DNA of 62,437 bases, filler included, from Planctomycetota bacterium (GCA_026991575.1; 5 parts of 5 records of this genome joined end to end with filler, not necessarily neighbours in it), one strand, 5' to 3'. Shown: positions 13,477 through 60,566, counted from the first letter of the whole stretch. Program-made: numbers and translations. The notes: generated from the letters alone by a model not told the origin.

Positions 13477-15357
13477 TCAAAGCCACTGAGCGGCCCAGTC
13501 GATGTCCAGGTCGTTCAACGTGGCGCGGGTGGGCAGGCCGGTGGCCGGGTCCCATCCCATGATCGCATAGTAGTCGCGCAGCCGCTCACGGAACAGGACC
13601 GGATCGATCCGTTCTCCCTTCAGCGGTCCGCTCTCGATCGGCTCGAACATTCGCGGCGGCAGATCGTCGCACGCAGTCCCCCGCCCCTCACGATGGTTGT
13701 AGATCCGGAACAGCGCCGAGCTCCGCTCTGCCGCCTTGCACAGCTCCCACAGCGAGATGTCCCAGCCGGTGACCCCGCGGAGGTAGTCCTCCATCGTGTG
13801 CAGGTCGAGGCTGCCGATTGGAACGCCGACGAAGCAGCACATGCCAATGATGTTGTAGAAGCTCCACAGCTTCTGAGCGTAAGCGAACGCCTTCACTTTG
13901 CGCGGGCTGAAATCAAGCATCGCCACCGGCTCGATCAGCCCCAGGGGCGCAAGGGCATGCTTACCCGGGAAGAACCCCTCAAACAGTGGATCGTGCGGCG
14001 CTTCCATGTGGTCGGCACCGGTGGGGCTGGTGGCATACGCCAGGGCCAAGCTCTTCTTGCCTCGTGGCTCGTGCATCGGTAGCTCTTGACCGCGTACATG
14101 GAGCGCGATCCGCTCAGCCGCCGGCCCCAGCCGCTTGGCAGCACGAGCAACCCCGTCGGCAAGCAACGCGCCGATGCCTCTTCGATGGGCGATCAGCTCG
14201 ATCAGCCGTACGACAACGTCCGGATCACCAAAGCGGAGCTTCAGGCCGTCGGTATCGGCCTCGGTCAGCAAGCCGCGTTCATAGGCCTCGATCGCAAAGG
14301 CGATGACGGCGCCCGTGGAGATGGAATCCAGCACGTACTTGGCACAGAGCTGGTTCGCCAGCGCGATCTTTTTCAGATCCCCTACCGCGTTCAACGAACC
14401 GAGGGCTGCGATCGATTCGTACTCCGGCCCCCCGTACTTCGGCACCACACCGAGTTCCGGCACCGCGACCTCCCGCTTGCACGCAACCGCACACGCGTAG
14501 CAGGTGCCTCGACGGGTGAGGATCGTCTCGGCCATGCGCTGGCCGGTGATGTTCTCAAACTGGTCAAAAACGCCGGTGCGGAAGTTATAGGTGGGCAGGA
14601 TCCCATCGCGCTGCAAGTTCTTCACGCCTCGGGCTGTGCCATAGAGATGCATCGTATCGGAGCGGCGATCGTACACGGAGTTGAAGTGCCGTTGAGCACG
14701 TCGGGCCAACTCCGGCTCAGCCGGCACAACCCGGCCCTTGCCCACGGCAACGACAGCCTTCAGGTTCTTTGACGCCATGACCGCCCCGAGCCCACAGCGG
14801 CCGTGGAAGTGCTTGCAGTTGTTGACCAGAGCGGCAAACCGCACCCGGTTCTCGCCGGCGATCCCGGTCTGCAGCACGACGGCTCTCGGTTCAGCCAGGT
14901 CATCCTTGAGCCGTTCGTCCACCTCGGCGGCCTCGCGGCCCCAGTACTGGCGCCCGTCGCGCAGCTCCCAGCCCCCCTCATAAACCACCAACACCACCGG
15001 CCGCTCCGCCTTCCCCGTAATCAAGATGGCGTCGTAGCCAGCCTGCTTCAGGGCCGGCCCCCAGAATCCCCCTGCCTCACTTTCGCCGAAGGCGAGCGTC
15101 AGCGGACTCTTGGCCACCACCGAGTAGCGGTTTGCCCCCGACATGGCCGTACCGTTCATGGCACTGGTGGCAATGATCAGCGGTGCGCGCGGATCGTAGG
15201 GGTCAAGACCGGGGGGAGTTTCGCGTAGCAGGTAGTACACGCCCAGCAGCCCCCCACCCAGGTAGCGGCGGAGGAAGCCTTCCTCCAACCGCTCCACGCG
15301 CCCTGTGCCACCAGTTAGATCGATCCGCAGCAGGCGTCCGGCAAAGCCACCCGGCAT
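13477..15357 (-). CDS. Aldehyde:ferredoxin oxidoreductase (tungsten-pterin AOR family)
   Basis: LRIDLT, KSPLT, GRCGLGAVMASKNLKA, CYACAVAC Fe-S motif, GPEYE, YYAIMGWD..GLPT. Confidence 0.93.
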   Translation of the reverse strand: MPGGFAGRLLRIDLTGGTGRVERLEEGFLRRYLGGGLLGVYYLLRETPPGLDPYDPRAPLIIATSAMNGTAMSGANRYSVVAKSPLTLAFGESEAGGFWGPALKQAGYDAILITGKAERPVVLVVYEGGWELRDGRQYWGREAAEVDERLKDDLAEPRAVVLQTGIAGENRVRFAALVNNCKHFHGRCGLGAVMASKNLKAVVAVGKGRVVPAEPELARRAQRHFNSVYDRRSDTMHLYGTARGVKNLQRDGILPTYNFRTGVFDQFENITGQRMAETILTRRGTCYACAVACKREVAVPELGVVPKYGGPEYESIAALGSLNAVGDLKKIALANQLCAKYVLDSISTGAVIAFAIEAYERGLLTEADTDGLKLRFGDPDVVVRLIELIAHRRGIGALLADGVARAAKRLGPAAERIALHVRGQELPMHEPRGKKSLALAYATSPTGADHMEAPHDPLFEGFFPGKHALAPLGLIEPVAMLDFSPRKVKAFAYAQKLWSFYNIIGMCCFVGVPIGSLDLHTMEDYLRGVTGWDISLWELCKAAERSSALFRIYNHREGRGTACDDLPPRMFEPIESGPLKGERIDPVLFRERLRDYYAIMGWDPATGLPTRATLNDLDIDWAAQWL

Positions 15358-15460: not shown

Positions 15461-16126
15461 ATGTTGCCACGCGTTCTGGAACCGGAGGCAATGGATAGCG
15501 AGGAAGAGGCACGTGAGTACGACGAGATGGATCATTCGGAAGTCAACCGCCTCTTCGTCGCCGACTTCCTCGCCACCTCCCCATCCCTGCACACGGTCGT
15601 CGACCTAGGCACCGGCACGGCTCGGATCCCGATCGAGCTGTGCCGGCAGGCACCGTCGGCGCGCGTGCTGGCAGTGGATGTCGCCCAGTGGATGCTCCGC
15701 CGCGGTCGTTCGAATGTGCAGCAGGCTGGCTACAGTGACCGTATCCTGCTGCTTCGAGCCAACGCCCGCCGGCTGCCACTGGTCGACGGCGCCGCGGCGT
15801 CGGTCATGTCCAACAGCCTAATCCATCACATCCCTGAACCCGCCGAGGTGCTGGGAGAGATGGTCCGCATTCTCGCCCCCGGCGGCGTCCTCTTCATCCG
15901 CGACCTCATGCGACCGCACTCGCAGCAAGAGCTGCAACGGCTCGTGACACTTTACGCCAGCAACACCACAGCCAAGCAGCGTGCCATGTTCGCAGCCTCG
16001 CTGCATGCAGCCCTTACCGTGCCGGAGGTGCAAGCCCTTGGTCGGCGCTTCGGAATCCAGCCTGAGTCGGTTCGCCCCACCTCCGATCGTCACTGGACGC
16101 TGCTCTGGCGCCGTCCGCACGCCTAG
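15461..16126 (+). CDS. Class I SAM-dependent methyltransferase
   Basis: PRVLEPEAMD N-terminus, VDLGTGTA motif I, SNSLIHHI. Confidence 0.9.
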   Translation: MLPRVLEPEAMDSEEEAREYDEMDHSEVNRLFVADFLATSPSLHTVVDLGTGTARIPIELCRQAPSARVLAVDVAQWMLRRGRSNVQQAGYSDRILLLRANARRLPLVDGAAASVMSNSLIHHIPEPAEVLGEMVRILAPGGVLFIRDLMRPHSQQELQRLVTLYASNTTAKQRAMFAASLHAALTVPEVQALGRRFGIQPESVRPTSDRHWTLLWRRPHA

Positions 16127-17166
16127 CGGTCAGCAATATCGCGGAACGTCACCCGCCACCAGAGCCGGTCGCGGGATACCGGTCTGCCGTTGATCTCGGC
16201 ATGAGGGTAAACGAAGTAATTCAACTGCCCGGCAGCCGCCGGCGGCACTAGCGGTATGTCTCGACCGACGCTCAGCGCCACTCGGTTCTCGGTCAGATTG
16301 CCGAAATAGTACTCCGTAAGCGCGGGGTGCTTATCGGCCTCGGAGATGTCCACCGGTATCCACCCGATGCCGTCGACGTGGAAATACGCCCAGCAGTGGT
16401 AGCCCGGTATCACGCCATGGCCGCGTCGCTCCGGTAACGGGAAGCCAATCACGAATCGAGTGGGGATTCCGTAGTAGCGGGTCATGGCCATGAAAAGGCT
16501 GTGGAAGTCGGTGCAGTTCCCATAGCCGGCCTGGCAGGCCCACTCGACGCTGCCCCGTCCCCATCCGGTCCCCACCTTACGGTAGGTCATATGAGCCAGT
16601 ACCTTGTGGTAAATCGCATACGCCAGCCTGACTTCGTCCCCTTCGGAAGGAAGGCCCCGTAAGAGCCGCAGCGCAGGTCCGCCGACGGGAACCAGCCGAC
16701 TAGGGCTCAGGTACAGCTGCCGCTGCGTCTCGGACAGCTGCACCGGTACCACGTTGCTGGCTCCCTGGAACGCCCTGCCCCGATGTCCGCCAAAGACCGG
16801 AGCCCTCACTTCGACGCGCGTCAACTCAAGCTCCACCTGCACCGCCGCGCCCTCAACGGGCCCGGTCCACCGGGCAAACAGGATCTGGTTGCCGTAGCGG
16901 GGATCGCGGGTCAGTTGTATCCGGCCAGCGCCCCGAATTCGCACGCCATGCAGCCGCTGGTGCGGCGAATCATGCCACAGCGGCAGCCACAGCTGTACCG
17001 CCGTTCCAGGGTGCACGTCGCGCACACCAGCCTCATAGCGCAACACGAACCGCCGCGTAGCCGGTTGGCTCCGGTTCGAATCGTCCGAGCACTGAGCCGC
17101 CGAAACGACGAGCAGGACGGTCAGCAGCGCGGTGCGCAGCTGATGGCAAAGGGCTCTGCAGTACAT
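16123..17166 (-). CDS. Transglutaminase-like domain protein, exported
   Basis: GNCTDFHSLF (Cys), YHCWA (His), WIPVD (Asp) triad; signal peptide. Confidence 0.9.
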   Translation of the reverse strand: MYCRALCHQLRTALLTVLLVVSAAQCSDDSNRSQPATRRFVLRYEAGVRDVHPGTAVQLWLPLWHDSPHQRLHGVRIRGAGRIQLTRDPRYGNQILFARWTGPVEGAAVQVELELTRVEVRAPVFGGHRGRAFQGASNVVPVQLSETQRQLYLSPSRLVPVGGPALRLLRGLPSEGDEVRLAYAIYHKVLAHMTYRKVGTGWGRGSVEWACQAGYGNCTDFHSLFMAMTRYYGIPTRFVIGFPLPERRGHGVIPGYHCWAYFHVDGIGWIPVDISEADKHPALTEYYFGNLTENRVALSVGRDIPLVPPAAAGQLNYFVYPHAEINGRPVSRDRLWWRVTFRDIADR

Positions 17167-17465: not shown

Positions 17466-17492
17466 TTGACTGTGTGTGTGTGTGTGTAGACT
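17466..17492 (+). promoter_or_regulatory. sigma70-like promoter with a (TG)8 spacer
   Basis: TTGACT (17466-17471), 15-nt spacer made entirely of the TG repeat, TAGACT (17487-17492); 30 nt upstream of the 17523 ATG. Confidence 0.65.
17471..17486. repeat. (TG)8 dinucleotide microsatellite
   Basis: tgtgtgtgtgtgtgtg read directly; no other such run was noticed in the window. Confidence 0.95.
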
Positions 17493-17522
17493 TCTGATGG
17501 TCGAAGGGAGGAAGCCTCCGTC

Positions 17523-18380
17523 ATGGCGGCGCGTCGGTTTTGGTGTGTGGTAGCGGGAATCGTGCTCTTGGCGGCCGCGGTGGCGAAGTTCCAGGCCGGG
17601 ACGAGGCTTGCGTACCTGCCGGGACCGCTTGGCGTGGTTGACGCTAGCTGGCCGGCCATTGAAGCTCTCGTAGGAGTAGTCGCGCTGGCTGGTGCCGGTA
17701 GACGGTTGCCCCATCTTGCCGTTACGGCCGTATTTACGCTCATCTTTCTCGTCGCTTTGTACGTGGTGCTGGCGGGCTACCCGTCGTGCGGATGCTTCGG
17801 CGCGGTGGAGATTCCGCCGCTGTTCGTCGCTATGTTGGACGCGGTGATTTTGGCCGGCCTACTGTCTGCTTTCTCGCGGCGGGCCACGACCGCCCTCTTG
17901 ACCGCTGGCGCCGGCCTTGTCGCGGCCGTGTGTACAGCATGGGCACTTGCGCCACCTCCAGCTCCGCTGTATCCATTGGCATGTGGAATCTGGGTGCACC
18001 GCAACGCCGCGGTGGTGCATCTCGACCCCGAGCTATGGCTGGACAGGCAGTGTCCTGTCGGCCTTGTAGGACCAGGCGGCAACGGGCCAACGGCGACGTG
18101 GTGCGTGCTGGTCCGTCCCGACTGTGCTCGCTGCAAGAACTGGGCAGCAGACTTCAAACGCCTTGCCAAGCGGACTGGTGCTAGCTTTCGCGAGTTTGTC
18201 ATTGGAAGCCACACGATGAAGATTGGGAGCGGGCGTTACGAAATCTGCGCGTGGCAGGACCCGGTTGCGTTTCTTGTGGACCGCCGCGGAACAGTGCGAC
18301 GGGTAGAGCCATTTGCCCAGAAGAAGGCTAGGCAGCGAGGGGCTCCACCCCGCTGCCCTATGCGCTACGGCGCGTCGTGA
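17523..18380 (+). CDS. MauE/DoxX family membrane protein with a C-terminal thioredoxin-like CxxC segment
   Basis: LLAAAVAK helix, E in helix 2, SCGCFG motif, about 5 TM segments; later RPDCARC and DPVAF. Confidence 0.75.
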   Translation: MAARRFWCVVAGIVLLAAAVAKFQAGTRLAYLPGPLGVVDASWPAIEALVGVVALAGAGRRLPHLAVTAVFTLIFLVALYVVLAGYPSCGCFGAVEIPPLFVAMLDAVILAGLLSAFSRRATTALLTAGAGLVAAVCTAWALAPPPAPLYPLACGIWVHRNAAVVHLDPELWLDRQCPVGLVGPGGNGPTATWCVLVRPDCARCKNWAADFKRLAKRTGASFREFVIGSHTMKIGSGRYEICAWQDPVAFLVDRRGTVRRVEPFAQKKARQRGAPPRCPMRYGAS

Positions 18381-18438
18381 CTGACGCGCGCTGCGGCGTG
18401 CAGGTGGGTCATTGATAACGCTTTGTGGAGGTGGTACA

Positions 18439-18738
18439 ATGCTTCGCGCTATTGCTGCTCTTGTCGGTCAGGCCACTGTGTGCCTTGTGTTCGGTTTTGC
18501 GCTTGGCCAGCTTGTCCCGTGGTCCGACATTGCGGTGGCGCAGCAGCGTGATCCCAGGTGCGACGGCGATAAAGTCTGCGACAGGGATTGCACGCTTACT
18601 TCCGGCGCTTGTAGCGGTGGCTGCAAGACCGAACAGGAACGCTGCAGGGACTGTGGCTGCTTCCGGGAGCAGACAAGCGACTTCCCTGCCTGTGTATGCG
18701 AGCTCTCCGCGGACGCCATCATCGGGGGGCGCGAGTAG
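18439..18738 (+). CDS. Small secreted cysteine-rich peptide (99 aa, 10 Cys in the mature part)
   Basis: GGAGGT RBS 6 nt before the ATG; hydrophobic signal ending AVA|QQ; CDGDKVCDRDCTLTSGACSGGCKTEQERCRDCGCFREQTSDFPACVC. Confidence 0.75.
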   Translation: MLRAIAALVGQATVCLVFGFALGQLVPWSDIAVAQQRDPRCDGDKVCDRDCTLTSGACSGGCKTEQERCRDCGCFREQTSDFPACVCELSADAIIGGRE

Positions 18739-18840
18739 CCGGCGCACGTGGGACGTGGATACCGGGCAAGCCCGGCGTTCCGCGAAGGCAGTAGTGCTGA
18801 GTGGTCGGGGATCTTGCTCGCAAGGGCATGGCCCGGAGAG

Positions 18841-19974
18841 ATGGCCATGGTTGTATGGGTCAGAGGTGGTGTGACCGGTGCGTGTGTCATCGTCACCTTG
18901 TTTGTCAGCCAGCTGCGCCTTTACGCTCAACACGATAGCCGCCTCACCCCGAGCGCCCTGCGTGCAGCGTGGCGCCGTTGGGCCGAGGCGTTCCAGGAAC
19001 TTGCTTGGGAAGGGGTTTATACGTCGAACGTCGAAGAGATCGTTTACCGCAAGAAGACAGCCTCATCCTCAAACTCCGAAGTAAACAGAGACGACCAGGG
19101 ACAAACAGAGCTAGAAAAGGAAATCCGCTCCACTTACCACTACACGTTCCTGTGCAAGTGGCCGGAAATCGTATGGCGAGTTCGTCGAGAGGAAACAATC
19201 ACCAGGCCGGGCCAGCGGCCAACGAGCACCACCAAGCTATCGGCTGGGCTTCTGCGGCAGGGCAGACTCTTTGTGCTGACCGGTAGCGAGAACGGGTGGG
19301 TAGTGCGATCGGTGTTGATGGACGCGTACGACCCCGCGGCACCGCCGGACTATTGGACGCTACTTACGGCGCCGCTGGACGGGCGGGCGGACCACAAACA
19401 ATTCCGATCCTTTGTGTGCGCCCCCATGCGGTACTTGTGTCGGTACCTAGATTCAGGCCGTTTGCGGTTCGATCGTGTGGAATCGACCGACGAAGGATTG
19501 GCGGTAGAATGGCATCTAGAGCTCGAAGGGCTGCCTGAAAACGAGCGTGTCGACCTGACTCCATGGCAGCGGGGCCGCTGGATCCTTGATCCAAACAACT
19601 CGTACATGATCGTGCATTCCGTAATTGCCGGGCCACTGTACCATGGCGGAACCTCAAGACAAGAAGTGAAGGTTCGCTACCGTCGGTACCGAGGGGTTCC
19701 TCTCATGACAGGCGGAAGCCTCCATTTAGTACTGGAGGACGAGAAGTACCTCAATCGATTTACATCGCAGTGGAGCCGTGAGATAGAGCGCGTCTCCACG
19801 GAGGTGGATCGTTCGAAGCTGACACTGACGCGGTTTGGCCTTCCAGACGAGCTTCGGATAGGCCCTCCGACGAAGGGCGTTCCCAGATGGTCTCGCTTGC
19901 TGGTGGCGGCGGTAGCGTTGTTGATTTGTGGCATGCTTCTATGGTGGGTGCGCAGTAGGAAGACGGCGCTCTGA
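18841..19974 (+). CDS. Exported hypothetical protein with a C-terminal membrane anchor
   Basis: N-terminal hydrophobic signal; beta-rich body; C-terminal LLVAAVALLICGMLLWW followed by basic RSRK; start uncertain. Confidence 0.7.
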   Translation: MAMVVWVRGGVTGACVIVTLFVSQLRLYAQHDSRLTPSALRAAWRRWAEAFQELAWEGVYTSNVEEIVYRKKTASSSNSEVNRDDQGQTELEKEIRSTYHYTFLCKWPEIVWRVRREETITRPGQRPTSTTKLSAGLLRQGRLFVLTGSENGWVVRSVLMDAYDPAAPPDYWTLLTAPLDGRADHKQFRSFVCAPMRYLCRYLDSGRLRFDRVESTDEGLAVEWHLELEGLPENERVDLTPWQRGRWILDPNNSYMIVHSVIAGPLYHGGTSRQEVKVRYRRYRGVPLMTGGSLHLVLEDEKYLNRFTSQWSREIERVSTEVDRSKLTLTRFGLPDELRIGPPTKGVPRWSRLLVAAVALLICGMLLWWVRSRKTAL

Positions 19975-20139
19975 GCGAACAGCGTGCTATTTGTGCAAAG
20001 GAATGGTGGGTTGCTCGTTGGCGGGTCGAGGCGAGCGGCGGTGAGAGGCGCCGCTTGGGGAACACAGGGGGGCAGACCGTACATGGCGCCCGTTGGACTC
20101 AGGTGCGGACACGGTCGAGGGCGGTGTGCGGGGGTGGGG

Positions 20140-21885
20140 ATGGCGGCAGCCATCGGGTCGCTGTGGCTTGCCGCAGTGGCTCCGAGCCTCCTCGTACACG
20201 CGCCGAACGTGGACGAGCCGGCCCACTTGATGTCGGCCCTCGCGATCTACCGTCTCTACCGATTTGACATCTACGGGGTAAATCCGCCATTGACGCGAAT
20301 CATCGGCGGGCTCGGAGCATCTAGGTTGGCCCCGGGAGACGGTGACCTCTGGCGAGATTGGACTCGGTATGTCGACCACCCGGGGGCGTACACCGTCTTC
20401 CCCCACGCCCTGTCAACATTTGCGGATCAGCTGCCACACTCGTTCGATTGGCTGCGGGCAGCTCGAGTGGTGCTTGCCGTTGTCACGGTGCTGGGACCGC
20501 TGGCCGTCTGGCTTTGGGCAACTACCGCGTACGGACCGTGGTCCGGCTTGCTGGCCACGGCCCTGTACGGCTTGAACCCCGAGTTGCTACACTGGTCGGG
20601 ATGCCTGAATGCGGACGGCCTTGCGGCCGCGATGGCCGCTGCCACGGGACTTGCGTACGCACTGTACGTGGACAGCCCAACCGTGGGCCGTGCTACTCAG
20701 ACCGGGGTTGTCCTGGGCCTGGCGCTGCTAACGAAGTACACGCTTCTGCTGCTCGCCGTGTTCGTGATCTGTTCGGAGCTCGCCTGGGCGCTGTGGTTGG
20801 CCTTGAGCCGTAAGCGGCACGAGGCACTGAGTCGGCTGTTCCATCTGATGTTCGTCGCCGGGATCGCCTGCTTTGTGGTCAATCTGGGGTACGGAGGCAC
20901 CGGCCACTGGCGCGCGCTGGGCGAGTACACGTTTCGCAGTGATCCTCTGGCAACGGTTCGTTCCATCGCCGTCGCAATGACGGGTGGTCTTGTGCAGGAA
21001 ATTCCCCTGCCGGTGCCGGACCTGTACATATACGGTCTGGACGTCCAGCTGCACGACACGGCCATCGCCCGTCCCACGTGGGTAGCCGGCCGCCTGCATC
21101 CACACGGCGTCAGCTACTTCTACCTCTATGGGTTACTGGTGAAGCTCCCGCTCGGCTTTTGGATCCTTGTCCTCTGGCGCGCGGCCCAGGCACTTCGCAG
21201 GCCGGGACTACGAGAGGGACGTGCTGTACTGTACCAACTCGTGCCGGGCTTGCTGATCCTTGGCATGCTGTCAACATTCTCCACCCTGACCGTCTTCCTG
21301 CGCTACGCGACGCCTGTTCTGCCGTTTCTGATCGTCTGGACCAGCGGTCTACTTGGTGCAGGTCGCCCTCGATTCACGCGACTGGCTGCCGTGGTGTGCC
21401 TGCTTGGCTGGCAGCTCTGGGCCGTCGCTAGCGCTGCGCCGCACTACCACGCTTACCTGAACGAGTTGGTTGGCGGACCTGCCGGCGGCTACCGCTACTT
21501 CGCCGGCCCGTCGGTTTCGTTCTACGAGGACTTCTTCGTCGTCCGGCGGCTGTGGCAGCAATACCGCAACAAGGGTGAGCCCGTGTTCGTGTCTTTCCGG
21601 GACGCGTGCCGCCTAACCAGCTACTGGCGGCTGGACGCTCCCAAGGTACCACCTCCCGAAGAGTTCGGCGATTCAGGCCCCCCTGTCGGATGGTACATCG
21701 TGGACCCGCACACCCTGGTGCAGCTCTATCCGGAAGCTCCAGAGACACGTTTTCTGCACTACATCCGCTATCTCAACCCGGTAAGGGTCGAAGGCTCCGT
21801 ACTCGTGTATCATGTGACCAAAGAAGACGCGGCCAGAATAGCTCGGCTACTCGGAAGCGGGAACCAGTCATCCCCGGAGAGGTGA
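20140..21885 (+). CDS. GT-C fold glycosyltransferase (PMT_2/ArnT/GT39-like)
   Basis: NVDEPAHL, VNPPL, GLALLTKYT, YFYLYGLLVKLP, RY..P.LPFL, YLNELVGGP; multiple TM helices; start may be as early as 19984. Confidence 0.85.
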   Translation: MAAAIGSLWLAAVAPSLLVHAPNVDEPAHLMSALAIYRLYRFDIYGVNPPLTRIIGGLGASRLAPGDGDLWRDWTRYVDHPGAYTVFPHALSTFADQLPHSFDWLRAARVVLAVVTVLGPLAVWLWATTAYGPWSGLLATALYGLNPELLHWSGCLNADGLAAAMAAATGLAYALYVDSPTVGRATQTGVVLGLALLTKYTLLLLAVFVICSELAWALWLALSRKRHEALSRLFHLMFVAGIACFVVNLGYGGTGHWRALGEYTFRSDPLATVRSIAVAMTGGLVQEIPLPVPDLYIYGLDVQLHDTAIARPTWVAGRLHPHGVSYFYLYGLLVKLPLGFWILVLWRAAQALRRPGLREGRAVLYQLVPGLLILGMLSTFSTLTVFLRYATPVLPFLIVWTSGLLGAGRPRFTRLAAVVCLLGWQLWAVASAAPHYHAYLNELVGGPAGGYRYFAGPSVSFYEDFFVVRRLWQQYRNKGEPVFVSFRDACRLTSYWRLDAPKVPPPEEFGDSGPPVGWYIVDPHTLVQLYPEAPETRFLHYIRYLNPVRVEGSVLVYHVTKEDAARIARLLGSGNQSSPER

Positions 21886-21886
21886 C

Positions 21887-22375
21887 ATGGCAAGGAAACA
21901 CGTGATGGCCGTGGCCCCGACGTGGTTCGTGTTCCTGGCGGTGGGGGTGTTGCTTGCCGGTACGGTCGTCCTGGTACGCTTGGAGGGAACCCCAGTCGTT
22001 TTCGAACCACCGGAGCCGCGCGTAGAGGACGCGACGGCAGGGACACGAGTCAAAGTGCCGCTGGGCATTCGCAATGTGAGCACGAGAGAAGTGACCATCG
22101 TAGGGGCGCACAGGGGGTGAGGAATCCGCCTGGTTAGCAGCGTGCCGGTCCGGCTCGCTCCAGGTCAGACGACCAACGTGGTTTTCGAGGTCCTTGCTCC
22201 ACGCGCGGGCAAGACATTCGTGTACCCGATGATGCTGTGCGTGAACGATGGACGCGCCCTTTATCTACTGCAGGGGCAGATTACCATAAGCAGCCGACAG
22301 GAAGAACCCAAGCAAACCGATGGATCGGCACGGGAATCGTCGCACGCGGCGGATGCGCCTGATCACCCGTCATGA
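21887..22375 (+). CDS. Membrane-anchored DUF1573-like (Ig-like) protein with in-frame TGA at codon 78; candidate selenoprotein, otherwise a pseudogene
   Basis: ORFs 21887-22120 and 22142-22375 are in the same frame, joined by TGA plus 7 sense codons: IRNVSTREVTIVGAHRG*GIRLVSSVPVRLAPGQ. Confidence 0.6.
22128..22165 (+). promoter_or_regulatory. Candidate bacterial SECIS hairpin
   Basis: CCTGG(22129-33)/CCAGG(22160-64), AGCG/CGCT and GCC/GGC stems with apical GGTCC loop 27 nt after the TGA. Confidence 0.5.
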
Positions 22376-23053: not shown

Positions 23054-23878
23054 TCACTGGTCGCCATTTGAGCCGACGCGCCGTTGTCTACTGGAGCGCA
23101 ACCCGAGAGCCGTTAGGGCAACACCACAAATCAATGAGCCCATTGTCGCCGGCTCAGGCGTCGGATGACTCCAGAATCGCACGTCGTCAATCACTGCATT
23201 CAAATACTGTCCATCACGCCGCGCACCGATCCATGGTCCTATTGAGGTGCGAAGCCCGGGCTCGCCGTTGAACGGCCCGGTAACCTCTTTCACCAGTGTA
23301 CCGTTGAGCCACACCCGGTTGAACTGCTGATACTTGTACTCGATCTCCAGAAATACCCACGTATTCAGAGGAATGGTTCCACCCCATATCTCTGTGTGGC
23401 CGGTCCCGCTCTCCTGCCAGATACTTGATCCGGCCGCGCCACTGTCATACACGTACATCCCATATGCCCAGGTCCCACTCGGTTCGGTTGGCGGTCCACC
23501 CAGCGAGACGACTGGCTGTCTGGCTTGCGGGTGCCCATCGGTATTCACTGCCAGCACCTTGATCCACGCCGATATACGGATCACGCCCGTGTAGTACGCC
23601 GTGCCGGGAACATGCGTGGAAAACCACTCGCTGGCGGGCAACTCCACGTAGTCGTTAATCCCGTCGAAGAGCAGCGCTCCAGCCGGGTTGCCGAACCGGT
23701 CAGTCGCGGGAACCGCGCCCGAGATGGTGCCATGCAACCCGTTGGGCCCCGCATCGTTGGCGTTTCCGTCCATCGGGTAGTACGCTATAAGTCCCCCACT
23801 GGCGCTGTCTGCCGGGCCCAGCACGGCAACCAGTGCGGCAATCATGACAAAGGTGATGTGGTTTGCCCACCGCATCAA
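23054..23878 (-). CDS. PEP-CTERM-sorted LamG/concanavalin-A-like protein
   Basis: Signal peptide; GLIAYYPMDGNAND..TDRFG..ALLFDG..IDDVRFW LamG pattern; C-terminal TPEPATMGSLICGVALTALGLRSSRQRR; GGAGG RBS. Confidence 0.88.
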   Translation of the reverse strand: MMRWANHITFVMIAALVAVLGPADSASGGLIAYYPMDGNANDAGPNGLHGTISGAVPATDRFGNPAGALLFDGINDYVELPASEWFSTHVPGTAYYTGVIRISAWIKVLAVNTDGHPQARQPVVSLGGPPTEPSGTWAYGMYVYDSGAAGSSIWQESGTGHTEIWGGTIPLNTWVFLEIEYKYQQFNRVWLNGTLVKEVTGPFNGEPGLRTSIGPWIGARRDGQYLNAVIDDVRFWSHPTPEPATMGSLICGVALTALGLRSSRQRRVGSNGDQ

Positions 23879-24452: not shown

Positions 24453-25753
24453 TTACCGCTCGTCTATGCGATAGATTCGCACGGCGGGCGTCACATAGTG
24501 AACCGGGTCGACTGATCGCAGGTGTGCGTAGGGGCTGTCGAGTTCATAAAGCGCGCGGACGAAAACGGCGTAGGTGCCGGTAAGCCGTCGGCTGAGGTGG
24601 GCCTGGCCGGATGAGCGGCTAGGATCGACCGGCAGCGTTCCTTGCTCCAGCCCAGCTGCTTTCAACAGGTGACGGGCAAATAGGTTGCTGTACACAATCC
24701 CGTCTAGCTTGACGTTGGGATGACGCTCCAGCCATCGTTTCAGCGCTAGCAGATCCTGGCCCCAGTCGATGTTGCTGTCCAACAGGTGCTTGTGGCCGTT
24801 GTACGCACCGCCGCTCGGATAGTTGAAGAACGACTCAGAGTGCGGTAATTGGCTCAAGCTGGCCGCAATGCCCAGCAGGAGTGCGAGGCAGGCCGTTGCG
24901 GTAAGCAGTCGACCTGCCGTGCGCCGCCTTGTTGGTGGCACCAGCGCCGTGCAGGAGAAAAGGTAAAGCAGCGGCAGGGCCGGCAGCACGTAGCGGTAAT
25001 GGTGGCTGAAGCCGCGCTGCGTGCTGACGACGCCGAAAACAAATGCCGCCGTGCCCAGGACGACCCACGTCCAGAACTGCCTGGGGCGCAACGCAAGTGA
25101 CACGACCGCGACGGCAAACAGGACAAGGTACCCGGCCGGCTCCTTGACAAGGGCCGCGTAGGCGTAGTACACATACCAGCCACCTTTCCGCCACCTGCCC
25201 GCCATGTACGACCAGAACCCCTGCTCGAAGTCGACCCGCTGTCGATCAATGCCGAGCACGTAGTCCTCGGGCAGTGGAACGGGGATGTGTTCGAGCAGGG
25301 TCCCGCGGAAGCGATTTCCGGGTGCTTCGATGGACGCGCTCGGTCCACCCAACAGTTGGGAACGGAACGGGAATGCCCCCAGAGGGCGTGCCAGACCACG
25401 GAAACCGTAGCTGGCGGCGATGACGGTAAGCGAGACGACCGCGGCAAGGGCAAGCTGCCCACACACCGCCCGTAGTCGATGCTGTCGTCTGCCGAGCAGC
25501 CAGGCAGCGGCAGTCAGCGGCGGCACCAGAAGCAGGCAGGTGAACTTGCTGGCGCACGCCAGCCCCAGTGCCCCGCCGAACGCTGCTGCCCCGGCCCACG
25601 TGGGACGTTCGCACCAGAGAGCAAAAACGAGGACCGTGGTCGCGGCGAAAGCCGCGGCACACGCATCAGGTACCAGAAGGGCACTGTAGGCGAGCACCGT
25701 GGGGGAAAAACAATACATCGCGGCCGCAGCCAGCCCCACACGCGCGCCCCAGT
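24453..25753 (-). CDS. Second GT-C (PMT_2/ArnT-like) glycosyltransferase, 5' end truncated by the contig end
   Basis: GLACASKFT, PLPEDYVLGID, GWYVYY..LVKEP, RYVLP.LP, LLDSNIDWGQDL. Confidence 0.85.
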
Positions 25754-25853
25754 NNNNNNNNNNNNNNNNNNNNNNNNNNNNNNNNNNNNNNNNNNNNTTA
25801 ATTAATTAANNNNNNNNNNNNNNNNNNNNNNNNNNNNNNNNNNNNNNNNNNNN
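25754..25853. other. Artificial contig linker
   Basis: N-run, TTAATTAATTAA (stops in all frames), N-run; identical at four positions. Confidence 0.97.
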
Positions 25854-26492: not shown

Positions 26493-27290
26493 CTACTGTC
26501 GCACAGCGTTCGGTCTGACCAGGTGCTCGACTGCATCCACGACGAGAGCTCAGGCGAGGAGGCCTGGGCCACGTACTGGACTCGGTTCATTCAGCAACAG
26601 GCTCGGCAACCCGCCTGTGCCGTCTACATCACCGAGATGTGGGACGCATGGGATCTGCACCATTTCCGGCACCGCAGGACACTCGATCACCGGCAACCGT
26701 ACGGTGTCGGTGATGTGTCGCAGAACAGCCACCAGAAAGGCCAGCTCAACGGGAACCGCCGCCGCTGGGCGCGCTGCTAACGGATGCGTATCGCACCGGG
26801 CCCGATGAACACGGTGAAGTGTTCGGGGCCGACGGCGGCCGATTCGGCGACGCACGGGGCGACATCGAACGCTGGTGGCGGTCCTTGGTGGGGCGGCCGC
26901 AGTGGTTCATTCTCACCGCCCCCCCTACTGCCTGGGACTGAGCGAACCGGCCCGCGCATGGATCCGTACGGCACGCATGGTGGAGCCGCTCGTGCCTTTC
27001 CGACAACTCGAATCACTGCTCCGCTTGTTGGAGGATCGCGCGGCGAGCGAAGCGCACCTGGCGACCTGGCCCGGCAGGCCCACGTGATCGACTTGCCCGG
27101 TGGCGGCTCCGTTCAGCCGGATCTCACTCACCAGTCGGGCCGCTATGAGCTACACTGGTTCAACGTACAGAAGGCAAACGCCTTGCCCGGCCCTGCGGGC
27201 GAGGGGGGCAAGGAGGCGCTCCTGCAACCAGCCGGCAGAGGCCACGGGGTTAGTGGGCTGCTGGGGGCGCGCGGGGCCGATGAGGGCTAG
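26493..27290 (+). pseudogene. 5'-truncated, multiply frameshifted remnant of a conserved glycoside-hydrolase-like protein
   Basis: Conserved-looking segments switch frame: DESSGEEAWATYW..TEMWDAWDL..DVSQNSHQKG / PMNTVK / FGADGGRFG..IERWWR / HRPPYCLGLSE / LHWFNV. Confidence 0.55.
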
Positions 27291-27327
27291 GCCCCTAGCG
27301 GGCCGCGTGCGAATGCCGGATCGAGCA

Positions 27328-28086
27328 ATGGCTGGCTTGTGCCTGAATATCTTCGTCAGTGTCCAGACGGTTGCTGAGGCCCGTGTGGCGGCCCGCTACC
27401 CGTGTATCGTCGATGTCAAGAATCCGCGACGCGGCAGTCTGGGAGCGCCCTCCTCGCGACAGCTGTCGCTGGTGGAGGCGGTGGTGCGGCCGAAACAGCG
27501 ACCGATGAGTGTTGCGCTGGGCGATGGTCCCCCATGGCAGACTTCCGACGGCGTGCCCGTCGACCAGTTGGTGGCGCTGGCGGACGTGCAGTTCGTGAAG
27601 CTGGGCCTGGCCGGCGTGGTCGAGCTATGCACCTCGCTAGAGCTCTTTGATCTGGTGTGCGAAGCGATCATACGGATCCGGCGGGCCAATCGGCATGTTG
27701 CTGTGGTGCTCGGAACCTTTGCTGACTACCATCGTTGTGCCGCTCCGCCGCCGGCGGAACTCATCGACCTGGCCGCCTACAGCGGGGCCGACGGGGTGCT
27801 GGTGGACACGTATGAGAAGCGGGCGAATGAGTCGCTGTTTACGCACATGCCATGGCGCGAGCTGCAGCGGTTGCGCCATCGCTGTGCCCTGCATGCACTT
27901 CGCTTTGCCGTGGCCGGGAACCTGCAGCCAGGCCACGTCTTCTTGCTCAAGAACGTCCAACCCCACTATGTTGGCTTTCGCTCAGCGCTGACCCGGGCCG
28001 GTTCGCGCCGCAGCACACTGGACGAACGCAAGCTTGCTGCTCTGTGTGACATGTTGCTGGCTGCGCGGCAGGTCGTTCGCGCCTGA
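27328..28086 (+). CDS. mfnB: (5-formylfuran-3-yl)methyl phosphate synthase (DUF556, methanofuran synthesis)
   Basis: VSV..VAEA, IVDVKNPRRGSLGA, SVALGD, VKLGL, LVDTYEK, AG.L, GFRSA. Confidence 0.85.
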   Translation: MAGLCLNIFVSVQTVAEARVAARYPCIVDVKNPRRGSLGAPSSRQLSLVEAVVRPKQRPMSVALGDGPPWQTSDGVPVDQLVALADVQFVKLGLAGVVELCTSLELFDLVCEAIIRIRRANRHVAVVLGTFADYHRCAAPPPAELIDLAAYSGADGVLVDTYEKRANESLFTHMPWRELQRLRHRCALHALRFAVAGNLQPGHVFLLKNVQPHYVGFRSALTRAGSRRSTLDERKLAALCDMLLAARQVVRA

Positions 28087-51058: not shown

Positions 51059-51158
51059 NNNNNNNNNNNNNNNNNNNNNNNNNNNNNNNNNNNNNNNNNN
51101 NNTTAATTAATTAANNNNNNNNNNNNNNNNNNNNNNNNNNNNNNNNNNNNNNNNNNNN
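51059..51158. other. Artificial contig linker
   Basis: N-run/TTAATTAATTAA/N-run. Confidence 0.97.
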
Positions 51159-51976: not shown

Positions 51977-54925
51977 TTAGGCCATAGCCGGCTCATGCGG
52001 CGTGGGCCGGCTCGGCATGGCTTTGACCGGTTCAACGGCCAGCGTCGCCAGCAGTAGTTCGGCTGGGTGGAGCACGGGCAGCTCGGTGAAGTGACGCAGC
52101 TGGATCTGACACGCACAGCACTCGCTGACGACGAAATCGACCGGTCGGGCTGTGACTGCGTCGCGCAGAGCCCGGCCCGCAGCCAGGGACGTCGCTTCGT
52201 TCTTGACGTGCAGACCGTAGGTGCCTGCCATACCGGAGCAGCCGGCCTCCAGATCGCGGACTCGCATGCCTGGCACGCGGCGTAGCAGCTCTAAGAACGG
52301 CCGACCGCGTTCTAGCGCCAGAAGGTGGCACGGAGCGTGATACGCAACGATCCAGGGACAGCGGCGCAGTGCCACCTTGTGGCCGGCCCTCCAGAGCCGG
52401 CTAAGGTAGTCACCCAGTTCGTAAGTTCGCTGGGCAACCAGCTCGCTTTCTGGCCCCGGCACGAGCCAGGGGTACTCCTCACGGAGCATGAGGGCTGCGG
52501 TCGGCTCTGAGCAGACGACGTCCCAGCCGTCCCGGACAAGGTCCCCCAGAACGCGCAGGTTCTGAAGCGCACGACTGCGGGCTGCCGCCACGTCACCGTA
52601 GTTCAAGAGCGGCATCCCGGAGGGCAGCTGTTGCGGGGGGACGAAGACCGTGACACCGTGTGCAGCCAGGAGTTGCAGCGAGGCCAGACCGAGTTCCGGC
52701 CGAATGTACGCTGCGAAAAGGTCAGCGAAGTAAACGGCGCGTTTGCCTCCTGCCCCGCGCGGCCGCTCTGTCCACCCGAACCGTTCGGCCCGAGCAAACA
52801 GGGTGCTGGCGGCAAGCTCAGGCAGCCGCCGCGAGCGTGAGAACCCGGCCATTCGTTCCAGCAGCCAGCGGCAGAGGCTGTTGCGCAACAACCGGTTCAC
52901 CACCGGTGCTGCCGGCTGAGTCCATCTCACCCACGTCTCGATTCTCGACAGGAACCATTCCGCAACGGACAGCCCGTTCTGCTCGGCGTAGGCGGCCTTG
53001 GCATCCAGCATCAGCCTCGGGACGTCGACGGCCGCCGGGCATTCCCGCTTGCACATCCGGCAATTAACGCACAGGTCGATCACCTCCTTGAACTCGGACC
53101 TGTAAGCCGCCTCGACCGGAAGCTCACCTTGAAGCAACGCGCGCAGCAGGTTCGCCTTGGCCCGAGGCGAAGCGTGCTCGGTCCCGTCAGCTCGAAAGAT
53201 CGGACACATTCGCATCGCCTCCCCCTGGGTGCGGCATAGAGCGCAGCCGTTACACCGGCGGACTTCCCGTGCCACATCGGCTGGCTGAACCCCCAGAGGG
53301 GAGTGCCACTGGTTACGGACCGCTGCCGGGGGTGCATCGCGCACCATGGCGGGCACCGGCGGCAACGACCCGGTGATCTTCTGCGGGTTGAGCAGCTCGC
53401 AGGGGTCAAACAGGCGGCGAACCTCGCGAAACGCCTCGACCAGTCGCCCGTACTGGCGGCGTACGTACGGCAACCGGGCGATGCCAACGCCGTGTTCGCT
53501 GCTGACAGAGCCCCCCATTTCCAGCACGATGCTGTAGAGCTCCTCGGCCAGCTCCTCGAGCATGCCAAAGTCCAGCGGATTGGACACGTCCAGAAACGGC
53601 CGCACGTGCACCTTGCCCTGGCCCGCGTGCGCATAGACGGTGGCCACGAGATTGCGCCGCCGCAGCAGTGCCAACGCGGTAGAGAGGAATTCGCGCAGCG
53701 TGCGCACGGGCACGCCAAGGTCCTCCAGGTACGGTACTGGCCGAGCGGGACCGCGCACGCGAGCCAGCTCACGCGCCGCTACCGCTCGCACCGACCACAG
53801 CCAGTCCGCCTCCTCCGGCTCGTACGCCTCGTATGCGTGTCTGGCGAGCCGTCGCACCCGACGGACCCGGTTCACGGTCAAACGCATCCGGTTGTACACC
53901 TCGATGGCATCATCGGCTTCGTGTTCGATCAGCAGGGCGGCTTCGGCGTCGGGCGGAATCAGCCGCTCGTAGCGGCCACCTGTTGCACGCACCAGGTGAA
54001 GCAGGCGGCGATCGAGCAGATCGCACGCAGTTGGTCCGTACGTTGTGATTTCATGGACGGCTTCAAGCGCGTGATCCAGGGTGTCGAAAAACAGCAGCGC
54101 AACGGCCCGGGCGGTCGGAGCAGGCAGCGTACGAACCGTTGCTCCGGTGACCACGGCCAGTGTCCCCTCGGTCCCGCACAGGAAGCGGGCCAGATGGACC
54201 GTCCCGTTTCGAACGATGTCGTGCAAGAGGTAGCCGCAGCGGTTCGGCGCCTGCCGCTGCAGCTGCAGCCGTTCGATCTCCGGCCAGTAGCGGCGAACGA
54301 TCTCTTTCAGCCCTCGGGCAATCGACTCCGGTGCCCGATCTCCCGGCGCGACCAGCCGCCCGTTCACACGAACCTCGCCCACGTCCCACAGCGTGCCGTC
54401 CGGCAGCACACAGCGGACCCGCTGCACGTACTCGCGCACATAGCCGAAGCGAAGGCTACGAGACCCGGATGCGTTCGTGGCAATCATCCCCCCCAGCGTG
54501 CACGCCGCTCCGCTAGCCGGATCGACCGGCAACCTCCTCCCTGCTGCCGACAGCATCCGGCTGACTTCGCGGAACGGGGCACCGGGCTGCACGACAACCG
54601 TCTCATCGTCCACGCGGACAACGCGGTTCATGAACTTGCAAAAGTCAAGCACGATCCCCTGCCCGAGTGATTCGCCGGCGAGCCCGGTGCCGGCCCCCCG
54701 CGGCAACACGGGGATGCGATTCTCTGCGGCGTACCGCAGTACCTGCATCACGTCCCCTTCGTGCCGGGGGTAAACGACGCCAAGCGGTAGGATCCGAAAG
54801 ATGCTGGCATCGGTGGCGTACAGGACGCGACTGATCGGATCGAACCGTACCTCCCCCTCGATGATCCCCCGCAGATCATCGGCAATGCGGTCCACGTCTC
54901 TGGGCGGCACGGTGACAATGGACAT
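51977..54925 (-). CDS. FAD-linked oxidase fused to 4Fe-4S/CCG (GlpC-like) domains
   Basis: YATDAS, PRGAGTGLAG, GTEGTL, SEHGVG, CNGCALC, CVNCRMC..CP, CSGMAG. Confidence 0.9.
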   Translation of the reverse strand: MSIVTVPPRDVDRIADDLRGIIEGEVRFDPISRVLYATDASIFRILPLGVVYPRHEGDVMQVLRYAAENRIPVLPRGAGTGLAGESLGQGIVLDFCKFMNRVVRVDDETVVVQPGAPFREVSRMLSAAGRRLPVDPASGAACTLGGMIATNASGSRSLRFGYVREYVQRVRCVLPDGTLWDVGEVRVNGRLVAPGDRAPESIARGLKEIVRRYWPEIERLQLQRQAPNRCGYLLHDIVRNGTVHLARFLCGTEGTLAVVTGATVRTLPAPTARAVALLFFDTLDHALEAVHEITTYGPTACDLLDRRLLHLVRATGGRYERLIPPDAEAALLIEHEADDAIEVYNRMRLTVNRVRRVRRLARHAYEAYEPEEADWLWSVRAVAARELARVRGPARPVPYLEDLGVPVRTLREFLSTALALLRRRNLVATVYAHAGQGKVHVRPFLDVSNPLDFGMLEELAEELYSIVLEMGGSVSSEHGVGIARLPYVRRQYGRLVEAFREVRRLFDPCELLNPQKITGSLPPVPAMVRDAPPAAVRNQWHSPLGVQPADVAREVRRCNGCALCRTQGEAMRMCPIFRADGTEHASPRAKANLLRALLQGELPVEAAYRSEFKEVIDLCVNCRMCKRECPAAVDVPRLMLDAKAAYAEQNGLSVAEWFLSRIETWVRWTQPAAPVVNRLLRNSLCRWLLERMAGFSRSRRLPELAASTLFARAERFGWTERPRGAGGKRAVYFADLFAAYIRPELGLASLQLLAAHGVTVFVPPQQLPSGMPLLNYGDVAAARSRALQNLRVLGDLVRDGWDVVCSEPTAALMLREEYPWLVPGPESELVAQRTYELGDYLSRLWRAGHKVALRRCPWIVAYHAPCHLLALERGRPFLELLRRVPGMRVRDLEAGCSGMAGTYGLHVKNEATSLAAGRALRDAVTARPVDFVVSECCACQIQLRHFTELPVLHPAELLLATLAVEPVKAMPSRPTPHEPAMA

Positions 54926-58455: not shown

Positions 58456-58555
58456 NNNNNNNNNNNNNNNNNNNNNNNNNNNNNNNNNNNNNNNNNNNNT
58501 TAATTAATTAANNNNNNNNNNNNNNNNNNNNNNNNNNNNNNNNNNNNNNNNNNNN
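58456..58555. other. Artificial contig linker
   Basis: N-run/TTAATTAATTAA/N-run. Confidence 0.97.
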
Positions 58556-60466: not shown

Positions 60467-60566
60467 NNNNNNNNNNNNNNNNNNNNNNNNNNNNNNNNNN
60501 NNNNNNNNNNTTAATTAATTAANNNNNNNNNNNNNNNNNNNNNNNNNNNNNNNNNNNNNNNNNNNN
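60467..60566. other. Artificial contig linker
   Basis: N-run/TTAATTAATTAA/N-run. Confidence 0.97.

Follow-up and report, generated by a model that had tools for sequence, protein, structure and literature searches.

The window analysed here is a stretch of 62,437 nucleotides (nt), filler included, from a Planctomycetota bacterium (GCA_026991575.1; five parts of five records joined end to end with filler), and our subject is a cluster of five genes, here called g1 to g5, at positions 17466-22375. A previous sequence-only reading of this DNA had described five co-oriented genes, and five open reading frames (ORFs), all on the plus strand, do lie in this interval. The first encodes a MauE-type membrane protein that we read as fused to a thioredoxin-fold domain, the last very probably encodes a selenoprotein with a DUF1573-like domain, and the two kinds of protein probably work together. 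The features of the cluster are the following:

17466..17492, plus strand: promoter-like site consisting of TTGACT (17466), a 15-nt spacer and TAGACT (17487), as read from the sequence.
17523..18380, plus strand: g1, MauE-type membrane protein with five transmembrane (TM) segments and a periplasmic thioredoxin-fold domain, as judged from Pfam, TM segments, an AlphaFold2 (AF2) model and Foldseek.
18439..18738, plus strand: g2, ORF of 99 amino acids (aa) whose N-terminus is signal-like and whose mature part of ~65 aa holds 10 Cys, as judged from the ORF and its hydrophobicity.
18847..19974, plus strand: g3, orphan bitopic protein of 375 aa with an N-terminal signal or anchor and a C-terminal TM segment, as judged from hydrophobic segments.
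19984..21885, plus strand: g4, polytopic glycosyltransferase of the GT-C (PMT_2) type, as judged from Pfam PMT_2; alternative ATG starts lie at 20084 and 20141.
21887..22375, plus strand: g5, membrane-anchored protein of 162 aa with a DUF1573/ASH-type immunoglobulin (Ig) fold and a probable selenocysteine (Sec) at residue 78 (G-U-G-I), the TGA at 22118-22120 being read through.
22128..22165, plus strand: hairpin resembling a selenocysteine insertion sequence (SECIS), with its apical loop GUC at 22148-22150, 27 nt after the UGA, as judged from RNA folding.

Each of the five starts is preceded by a Shine-Dalgarno-like sequence, the gaps between successive genes from g1 to g5 measure 58, 108, 9-166 (the start of g4 being uncertain) and 1 nt, and terminator-like sites show no excess (5 observed vs 4.2 expected in shuffles). 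The common strand, the Shine-Dalgarno-like sequence at every gene, the 1-nt junction between g4 and g5 and the lack of a terminator excess are all in keeping with the model put forward in the sequence-only reading, in which the five genes would make up a single dedicated, phase-variable route for the oxidative folding, glycosylation and display of the Cys-rich g2 peptide, either as a surface antigen or as a product akin to ribosomally made peptides with post-translational modifications (RiPPs). The remaining evidence on this model is given with g2 below. The same reading had found no methylamine dehydrogenase genes, and no such domain was detected in the 52 window ORFs scanned.

An in-frame TGA had already been noticed in g5, together with a likeness to DUF1573, and both observations hold: when the TGA is read through, the product gives a weak match to DUF1573 (PF07610; E=0.047) that spans the TGA. 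A word-based protein search with g5 returned nothing; an exhaustive HMMER search returned 40 proteins at E<=1e-3. Thirty-two of these were aligned with g5 (alignment A2, 33 rows), the omitted matches being P0005 (the window's own N-terminal half), P0009 and P0031 (257-aa proteins with two domains) and the long multidomain proteins P0008, P0021, P0022, P0032 and P0034. In A2 the TGA column is occupied by Cys in 29/29 homologs that cover it, and this Cys is the first of a CxC motif whose second Cys is present in 25 of the 29 (the other four being single-Cys variants) and is replaced by Ile in g5. Membership of the DUF1573 family is indicated by 27 of the 33 rows, which match it at E<=0.01 (best 5e-11); 13 of the 33 match the HYDIN/VesB Ig family, and the A2 profile matches FAP74 at 6e-7. 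The AF2 model of g5, built with the alignment, consists of a TM helix (residues 3-33) and a beta sandwich that forms one Ig domain (predicted local distance difference test score, pLDDT, 90.2), and Foldseek returned 100 matches at E<=1e-3, of the ASH/PapD-like type (OCRL ASH, VesB Ig, CEP192, HYDIN and 2qsv). The position of the CxC motif in this model is a loop of the Ig-type sandwich and not a thioredoxin fold.

The closest relatives of g5 appear as fragments. P0007 (62% identical to g5) terminates exactly at residue 77, P0006 (74% identical) starts at residue 84 as a separate ORF, and P0011 (46% identical) comprises the C-terminal half only. Judging from the protein sequences, P0007 and P0006 would be two pieces of the closest relative of g5, broken at the same codon, for which a TGA stop is assumed. 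The half of g5 downstream of the TGA is the better conserved one (74% identity in P0006, vs 62% in P0007 for the upstream half) and retains a coding signal; residues S84-G93, the ten residues encoded inside the hairpin, are unchanged in P0006. TGA also serves as an ordinary stop codon here, ending 11 of the 21 genes checked, and the 9 other in-frame TGA sites flagged in the window are, by their coordinates, all antisense to better-supported genes or ORFs.

The hairpin downstream of the TGA is composed of a 4-bp upper stem, a U-U mismatch, 4 bp, a 5-nt bulge and 6 bp, with a folding energy of -19.9 kcal/mol. It fits the published bacterial SECIS (bSECIS) model in all four of its constraints, namely a loop of 3-9 nt with G in the first two loop positions, a stem of at least 4 bp, a distance of 16-37 nt from the UGA and a minimum free energy of <= -7.5. 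A search of Rfam at the TGA region gave only a chance match to a small nucleolar RNA (E=8). We conclude that g5 is very probably a selenoprotein with selenocysteine at the TGA, on the grounds that the TGA aligns with Cys in every homolog covering it, that the break in the nearest relative falls at the same codon and that a bSECIS-type hairpin follows; this gives strong support to what had been put forward as a possible selenoprotein.

Several points weigh against selenocysteine in g5 and have to be set beside this evidence. The DUF1573 score of the read-through product (14.2 bits) lies below the cut-off of 26.1, and of the two CxC cysteines the second is missing from g5, whose own motif is U-G-I. 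The bSECIS test is permissive, with 216 of the 1414 TGA triplets of the window (15%) passing it and 99 (7%) doing so with G[GU], and the folding energy of the hairpin is not significant (z-score -0.59). The stop in the relatives is known from protein ends, so that TGA is their presumed and not their observed codon. The selenocysteine genes selA, selB, selC and selD are absent from the window, a statement that covers the window and not the whole genome, and the sole tRNA there is tRNA-Glu; full sets of Sec-insertion genes are described in the literature from some Planctomycetes. The TGA is moreover one mutation away from a Cys codon, so that a TGY codon turned nonsense by mutation, the main rival to selenocysteine, is not far-fetched. 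On this rival view g5 would be either a pseudogene or a pair of short ORFs unrelated to each other, and the cluster would consist of envelope genes that lie together by chance; the single TGY to TGA change, the lack of Sec machinery in the window, the frequency of SECIS-like folds in this GC-rich DNA and the fact that gene callers split g5 (P0005 being its N-terminal half) would all fit. A decayed gene does not explain why a relative that is 62% and 74% identical in its two pieces breaks at the same residue and is better conserved downstream of it, nor why S84-G93, within the hairpin, are unchanged in P0006; in addition, the read-through product folds in the model as one Ig domain with a pLDDT of 90, and the link to MauE described below is seen independently in fusion proteins. 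We regard the pseudogene explanation as very improbable.

A DUF1573 domain-containing protein with the motif UGC is a listed selenoprotein family in the available parts of two reviews (PMC9312934, PMC13188914), both of which trace it to a study of Olavius symbionts (PMC1976440), where the available main text does not use the name DUF1573. g5 resembles these DUF1573/OS_HP2 selenoproteins in that Sec replaces the first Cys of CxC, and differs from them in belonging to a divergent subfamily, in its N-terminal TM anchor, in the U-G-I motif and in its origin from a Planctomycetota-like genome. This divergence is also seen with the NCBIfam model for the OS_HP2 (seleno)protein, NF041425, to which g5 gave no match at E<=0.1, a further point against its being a selenoprotein of that kind, and to which its relatives score 13-26 bits vs a cut-off of 100.

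At the other end of the cluster, g1 contains five hydrophobic segments and is assigned to PF07291 (PF07291.17) in a precomputed protein database annotation. The hexapeptide S-C89-G-C91-F92-G93 lies between the hydrophobic segments 65-83 (TM3) and 100-118 (TM4), K22 lies in TM1 (6-24) and E47 in TM2 (38-56). A word-based protein search found two relatives of g1, at 53% identity and with every motif kept, and the CGC-F-G sequence, K22 and E47 are invariant in 4/4 aligned proteins, namely g1, these two relatives and the MauE protein of locus L001 (see below). According to a preprint of March 2026, as far as its main text goes (bioRxiv 10.64898/2026.03.05.709764), MauE proteins from two phyla substitute for DsbB in E. 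coli, MauE has as its active site a periplasmic CXC between TM3 and TM4 that is followed by a conserved F-G, the conserved residues near the predicted quinone site are a Lys of TM1 and a Glu of TM2, and fusions of MauE to thioredoxin-superfamily domains account for 8.2% of the InterPro MauE entries. g1 resembles the MauE proteins described there in its roughly four MauE helices, its periplasmic CXC-F-G, its TM1 Lys and TM2 Glu (K22 and E47 being equated with the residues of the preprint by position and not by alignment to its proteins) and its tethered CxxC domain of predicted thioredoxin fold. These features, which match those of MauE proteins able to replace DsbB, support the extracytoplasmic thiol-redox role that the sequence-only reading had proposed for g1.

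The C-terminal domain of g1 follows the fifth TM segment and carries C201-A-R-C204; the MauE/DoxX protein with an SCGCFG motif and a CxxC tail that had been described from the sequence is confirmed by the PF07291 annotation and by both Cys pairs (C89/C91 and C201/C204). In an AF2 model built from 4 sequences (mean pLDDT 59; 70-90 in the C-terminal domain), a strand (191-197) is followed by C201-A-R-C204, which opens a helix (202-218) in a beta-CxxC-alpha arrangement, and the best Foldseek matches of the C-terminal domain are CcmG, DsbE, ResA, Etrx and SdbA (E 5e-3 to 4e-2, probability ~1.0), all of them periplasmic oxidoreductases of thioredoxin fold with a membrane anchor. Because of this modelled strand-CxxC-helix arrangement and the CcmG/ResA/Etrx-type matches we read g1 as a MauE-thioredoxin fusion, a kind of protein that has already been described. 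A PDB profile match of the C-terminal region to the CxxC region of DsbG has E=1.2. Points that count against this reading of g1 are its score with Pfam MauE (PF07291.16; E=2.9e-5), which at 24.8 bits falls just under the cut-off of 27, and the thioredoxin domain's lack of a Foldseek match at E<=1e-3 and of a Pfam match at E<=1. In lying just below the Pfam cut-off and in having two close relatives only, g1 also differs from the MauE set of the preprint. In DsbB-DsbA and VKOR-thioredoxin fusions, as would be the case in g1, a membrane-embedded, quinone-linked oxidase is combined with its periplasmic redox partner, sometimes in one chain.

The search with g5 also connects the two ends of the cluster. 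Three of the 40 HMMER matches (P0018, P0020 and P0035), which are mutually 20-25% identical, contain a MauE-like CGC loop, exactly two TM segments and then a DUF1573-like domain. Their layout is that of g1, with an Ig domain where g1 has its thioredoxin domain, so that the partner position which in DsbB-DsbA and VKOR-thioredoxin fusions belongs to a thioredoxin fold is held in these three proteins by an Ig-type DUF1573-like domain. A scan for related loci (one genome per species) found a single locus, L001, on a 5.4-kb contig of a Phycisphaeraceae metagenome-assembled genome, where a DUF1573 gene (E=7e-15, Cys-Ser-Cys) ends 25 nt before a gene for MauE (E=2.6e-7) with a CxxC. Since MauE-like and DUF1573-like domains are fused in three distant proteins and the genes are adjacent in L001, we think that a MauE-type enzyme and a DUF1573 protein are probably functional partners, and a functional link between the first and the last gene of the cluster gains support from the same fusions and adjacency. 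With regard to the whole cluster, the DUF1573/MauE-thioredoxin pair recurs in L001, and no other gene of the cluster is found on that contig, which ends ~200 nt downstream. The DUF1573 protein of L001 (2766-3962) has 398 aa and is far longer than g5; its N-terminus is signal-like, its Ig domain is followed by a second region, and its ORF contains a short masked stretch.

The MauE-DUF1573 link is the new point of this work, MauE-thioredoxin fusions and DUF1573 selenoproteins being known kinds already. We did not find the association in print, either in the DUF1573 papers searched for MauE or in the main text of the preprint, where neither DUF1573, Planctomycetes nor selenocysteine is mentioned; a supplementary figure of the preprint on fusions to non-thioredoxin domains lay outside this search. 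A literature search for MauE together with selenoprotein gave matches to author names only, and in a Bacteroides paper DUF1573 appears in a gene table only. The statement of the sequence-only reading that it knew of no characterised system with this architecture needs qualifying, in that DUF1573 selenoproteins and MauE-thioredoxin fusions have been reported and pairs of mauE with Cys-rich precursors have been proposed as candidate RiPP families.

The Cys/Sec site of the DUF1573-like domain might alternatively serve at the membrane surface to bind a metal or chalcogen (e.g. Cu, Hg or Se) rather than to exchange disulfides, with MauE doing no more than setting its redox state. The selenoprotein table that contains DUF1573 also includes several proteins that handle metals, among them MerT, a cation ATPase and a mercuric-reductase-like protein, in the available parts of PMC9312934 and PMC13188914, and the placement of CxC on a sandwich loop rather than in a thioredoxin fold would be compatible with such a role. 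However, 4/29 homologs have a single Cys and g5 has U-G-I, which would make a poor chelating site, and in the fusions the DUF1573-like domain stands where MauE-thioredoxin proteins have their redox partner. We consider metal or chalcogen binding quite improbable.

We judge it moderately likely, on the sequence evidence above, that the cluster is an extracytoplasmic thiol/selenol redox module in which a MauE-thioredoxin oxidase acts with a membrane-anchored selenoprotein of the DUF1573 type. In such a module g1 would be a self-contained oxidase of the DsbB/DsbA type, whose MauE domain would pass electrons from the periplasmic C89-G-C91 loop to quinone, a direction of flow that we infer, and would re-oxidise its own tethered CxxC domain of thioredoxin fold, which would then put disulfides into exported proteins. 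g5 is predicted to sit in the same membrane and on the same side as the active site of g1, with the invariant first CxC Cys of its family replaced by selenocysteine, and would most likely serve the MauE module as redox partner or client, contacting g1 through transient selenenyl-sulfide bonds. The genes would presumably be co-transcribed, and g2, if expressed, could plausibly act as a disulfide-rich substrate; this explanation assigns no role to g3 or g4. Weighing against the module are the limitation of the adjacency evidence for MauE and DUF1573 genes to one locus of one found and the codon scores of g1-g3, which lie below those of 14 reference genes. A stronger version, which we regard as rather doubtful, is that the DUF1573/ASH Ig domain with its CxC (or Sec) loop represents a new, non-thioredoxin class of periplasmic thiol-disulfide/selenol oxidoreductase that MauE would re-oxidise directly, in effect an Ig-fold counterpart of DsbA, and that the operon is a dedicated line of maturation for the secreted 10-Cys peptide, carried out by the MauE-thioredoxin oxidase, the Sec-containing Ig protein and the GT-C enzyme.

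Only recently was MauE put forward as the second most frequent route of disulfide formation in bacteria, and its known partners are all of the thioredoxin fold. A tie between MauE and the DUF1573 Ig-fold domain would offer a first testable role for this large and functionally uncharacterised family, a role supported by the redox-type use of selenocysteine at its invariant Cys, and the fusions and the adjacency suggest that partners other than those of thioredoxin fold can serve in oxidative folding. With g5, a phylum with few described selenoproteins very probably gains a membrane-anchored one.

The signal-bearing 10-Cys peptide on which the five-gene model depends is borne out in part. g2 has a hydrophobic segment (residues 4-22), 10 Cys counted after a signal cleavage site placed by eye and a strong Shine-Dalgarno sequence (GGAGGTG, 5 nt before the best start, ATG 18439), but its codon signal is ambiguous, with a score of 0.061 vs 0.135 for the antisense frame, which makes it uncertain whether g2 is coding. 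By Cys content it ranks in the top ~1% of the 317 window ORFs of 60-150 aa, 10 of which carry at least 9 Cys. No family or relative was found in Pfam, NCBIfam, PDB or the ESM Atlas, the PDB search giving only defensin-like chains at E=1.3-2.9, which is not significant. A site of the form TTGATA-17-TACAAT with an extended TG (10/12 matches; 18412-18440) overlaps the ATG of g2; it may be chance and, if real, the start or transcript of g2 would differ from that assumed.

Upstream of g1, a perfect (TG)8.5 tract (17471-17487), the sole dinucleotide array in the window, fills the spacer between TTGACT and TAGACT. A sigma-70 promoter scan gave no call at 17466-17492, because the 15-nt spacer falls outside the 16-18 nt range. 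The single promoter and the switching that the sequence-only reading had put forward were not confirmed. Phase-variable promoters with repeat tracts in the spacer between -35 and -10 are found in Haemophilus and Neisseria. The site described here is like them in having a perfect dinucleotide tract between two hexamer-like sites, and unlike them in its spacer of 15 nt and in its being a single locus copy, and thus known from one repeat length.

Besides the gene layout, the five-gene model can draw on this (TG)8.5 tract inside a promoter-like spacer and on g2, which occupies an otherwise empty gap of 466 nt and has a strong Shine-Dalgarno sequence and a signal-like N-terminus. It also has a precedent, with no characterised example, since mauE (in one case with mauD) beside Cys-rich precursors has been proposed in Streptomyces, where decRiPPter found candidate RiPP families whose precursors have at least 8 Cys (available part of PMC7794033). 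The present cluster is like these candidates in that a MauE gene stands beside a small Cys-rich ORF and methylamine dehydrogenase genes are absent, and unlike them in its phylum and in its MauE-thioredoxin fusion, Sec-type signal sequence, GT-C gene and selenoprotein; the two are likened by description, neither being characterised. Set against the five-gene model are the failure to find relatives of g2 or g3 in the searches described here, a codon signal of g2 no better than that of its antisense frame, the restriction of L001 to the DUF1573 and MauE-thioredoxin pair (within a contig ending ~200 nt downstream), a paralog of g4 that lies 2.5 kb away in a different context, and the view of the preprint, in its main text, that MauE is a generalist oxidase and not a dedicated maturase. 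Glycosylation of the peptide by g4, phase switching and the conservation of all five genes as one system gained no support from this analysis. We hold the five-gene pathway as originally framed to be unlikely; a five-gene peptide-maturation system is a possible extension of the MauE/DUF1573 reading.

Of the two genes between g2 and g5, the start chosen for g3 (18847) is that of its sole database copy, and hydrophobic N- and C-terminal segments are present, in agreement with its earlier description as an exported membrane-anchored protein. A word-based protein search returned only g3 itself and there was no Pfam or NCBIfam match; the nearest ESM Atlas clusters are unnamed, mostly Planctomycetota proteins (0.96-0.97), and a TP_0789/LolA-like match in the Atlas (0.82) was discarded as too weak to use. 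The GT-C glycosyltransferase previously recognised in g4 is upheld by a PMT_2 match above cut-off (PF13231; E=2e-7, 31.8 bits vs 26.1) and by many hydrophobic segments, as expected of a polytopic protein. An acidic V-D-E-P after the first TM segment, seen by eye, we take to be a GT-C motif. An N-x-S/T sequon-like motif (N-V-S, residues 63-65) is present in g5, 13 residues before the Cys/Sec position, and in 26 of 31 family members; the GT-C gene g4 lies directly upstream of the sequon-bearing g5, and the motif might have no more than a structural role.

A second PMT_2-type GT-C gene, 31% identical to g4, is found on the minus strand at 24453-25739, and a gene for a lectin-like Laminin_G_3 protein (23054-23878, minus strand) adjoins it. 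A PEP-CTERM tail on the latter protein, suggested by a by-eye likeness, was not confirmed by NCBIfam.

As regards the genomic setting, the GC content at third codon positions of g1-g3 is 0.66-0.69 vs 0.72-0.80 in the 14 reference genes, and no 2-kb block of the window is less rich in GC than 18001-20000 (60%). Together with the low codon scores, this could reflect recent acquisition or fast evolution of g1-g3, to judge by composition. A domain scan showed that the window also encodes DUF1598, DUF7133 and 4-HFC-P synthase genes, which, together with the nearest Atlas clusters of g3, give it a planctomycetal look. An aldehyde:ferredoxin oxidoreductase (13477-15357, minus strand), the 4-HFC-P synthase (27100-28086, plus strand) and a large FAD-oxidase/4Fe-4S/CCG protein (51977-54925, minus strand) suggest an anaerobic or C1-cofactor-using lifestyle, of a kind rich in selenoproteins. 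Divergent from g1 and behind a promoter-like site with 11/12 matches (17425-17396) lies a transglutaminase-core gene (16123-17166, minus strand); in a paper on Planctomycetes a transglut_core gene stands beside the Sec-insertion operon, a parallel that is possibly coincidence. Paired runs of 44 N, 12 bases apart, occur at 25754-25853, 51059-51158, 58456-58555 and 60467-60566 and resemble masked stretches, the first of them removing the N-terminal part of the second GT-C gene.

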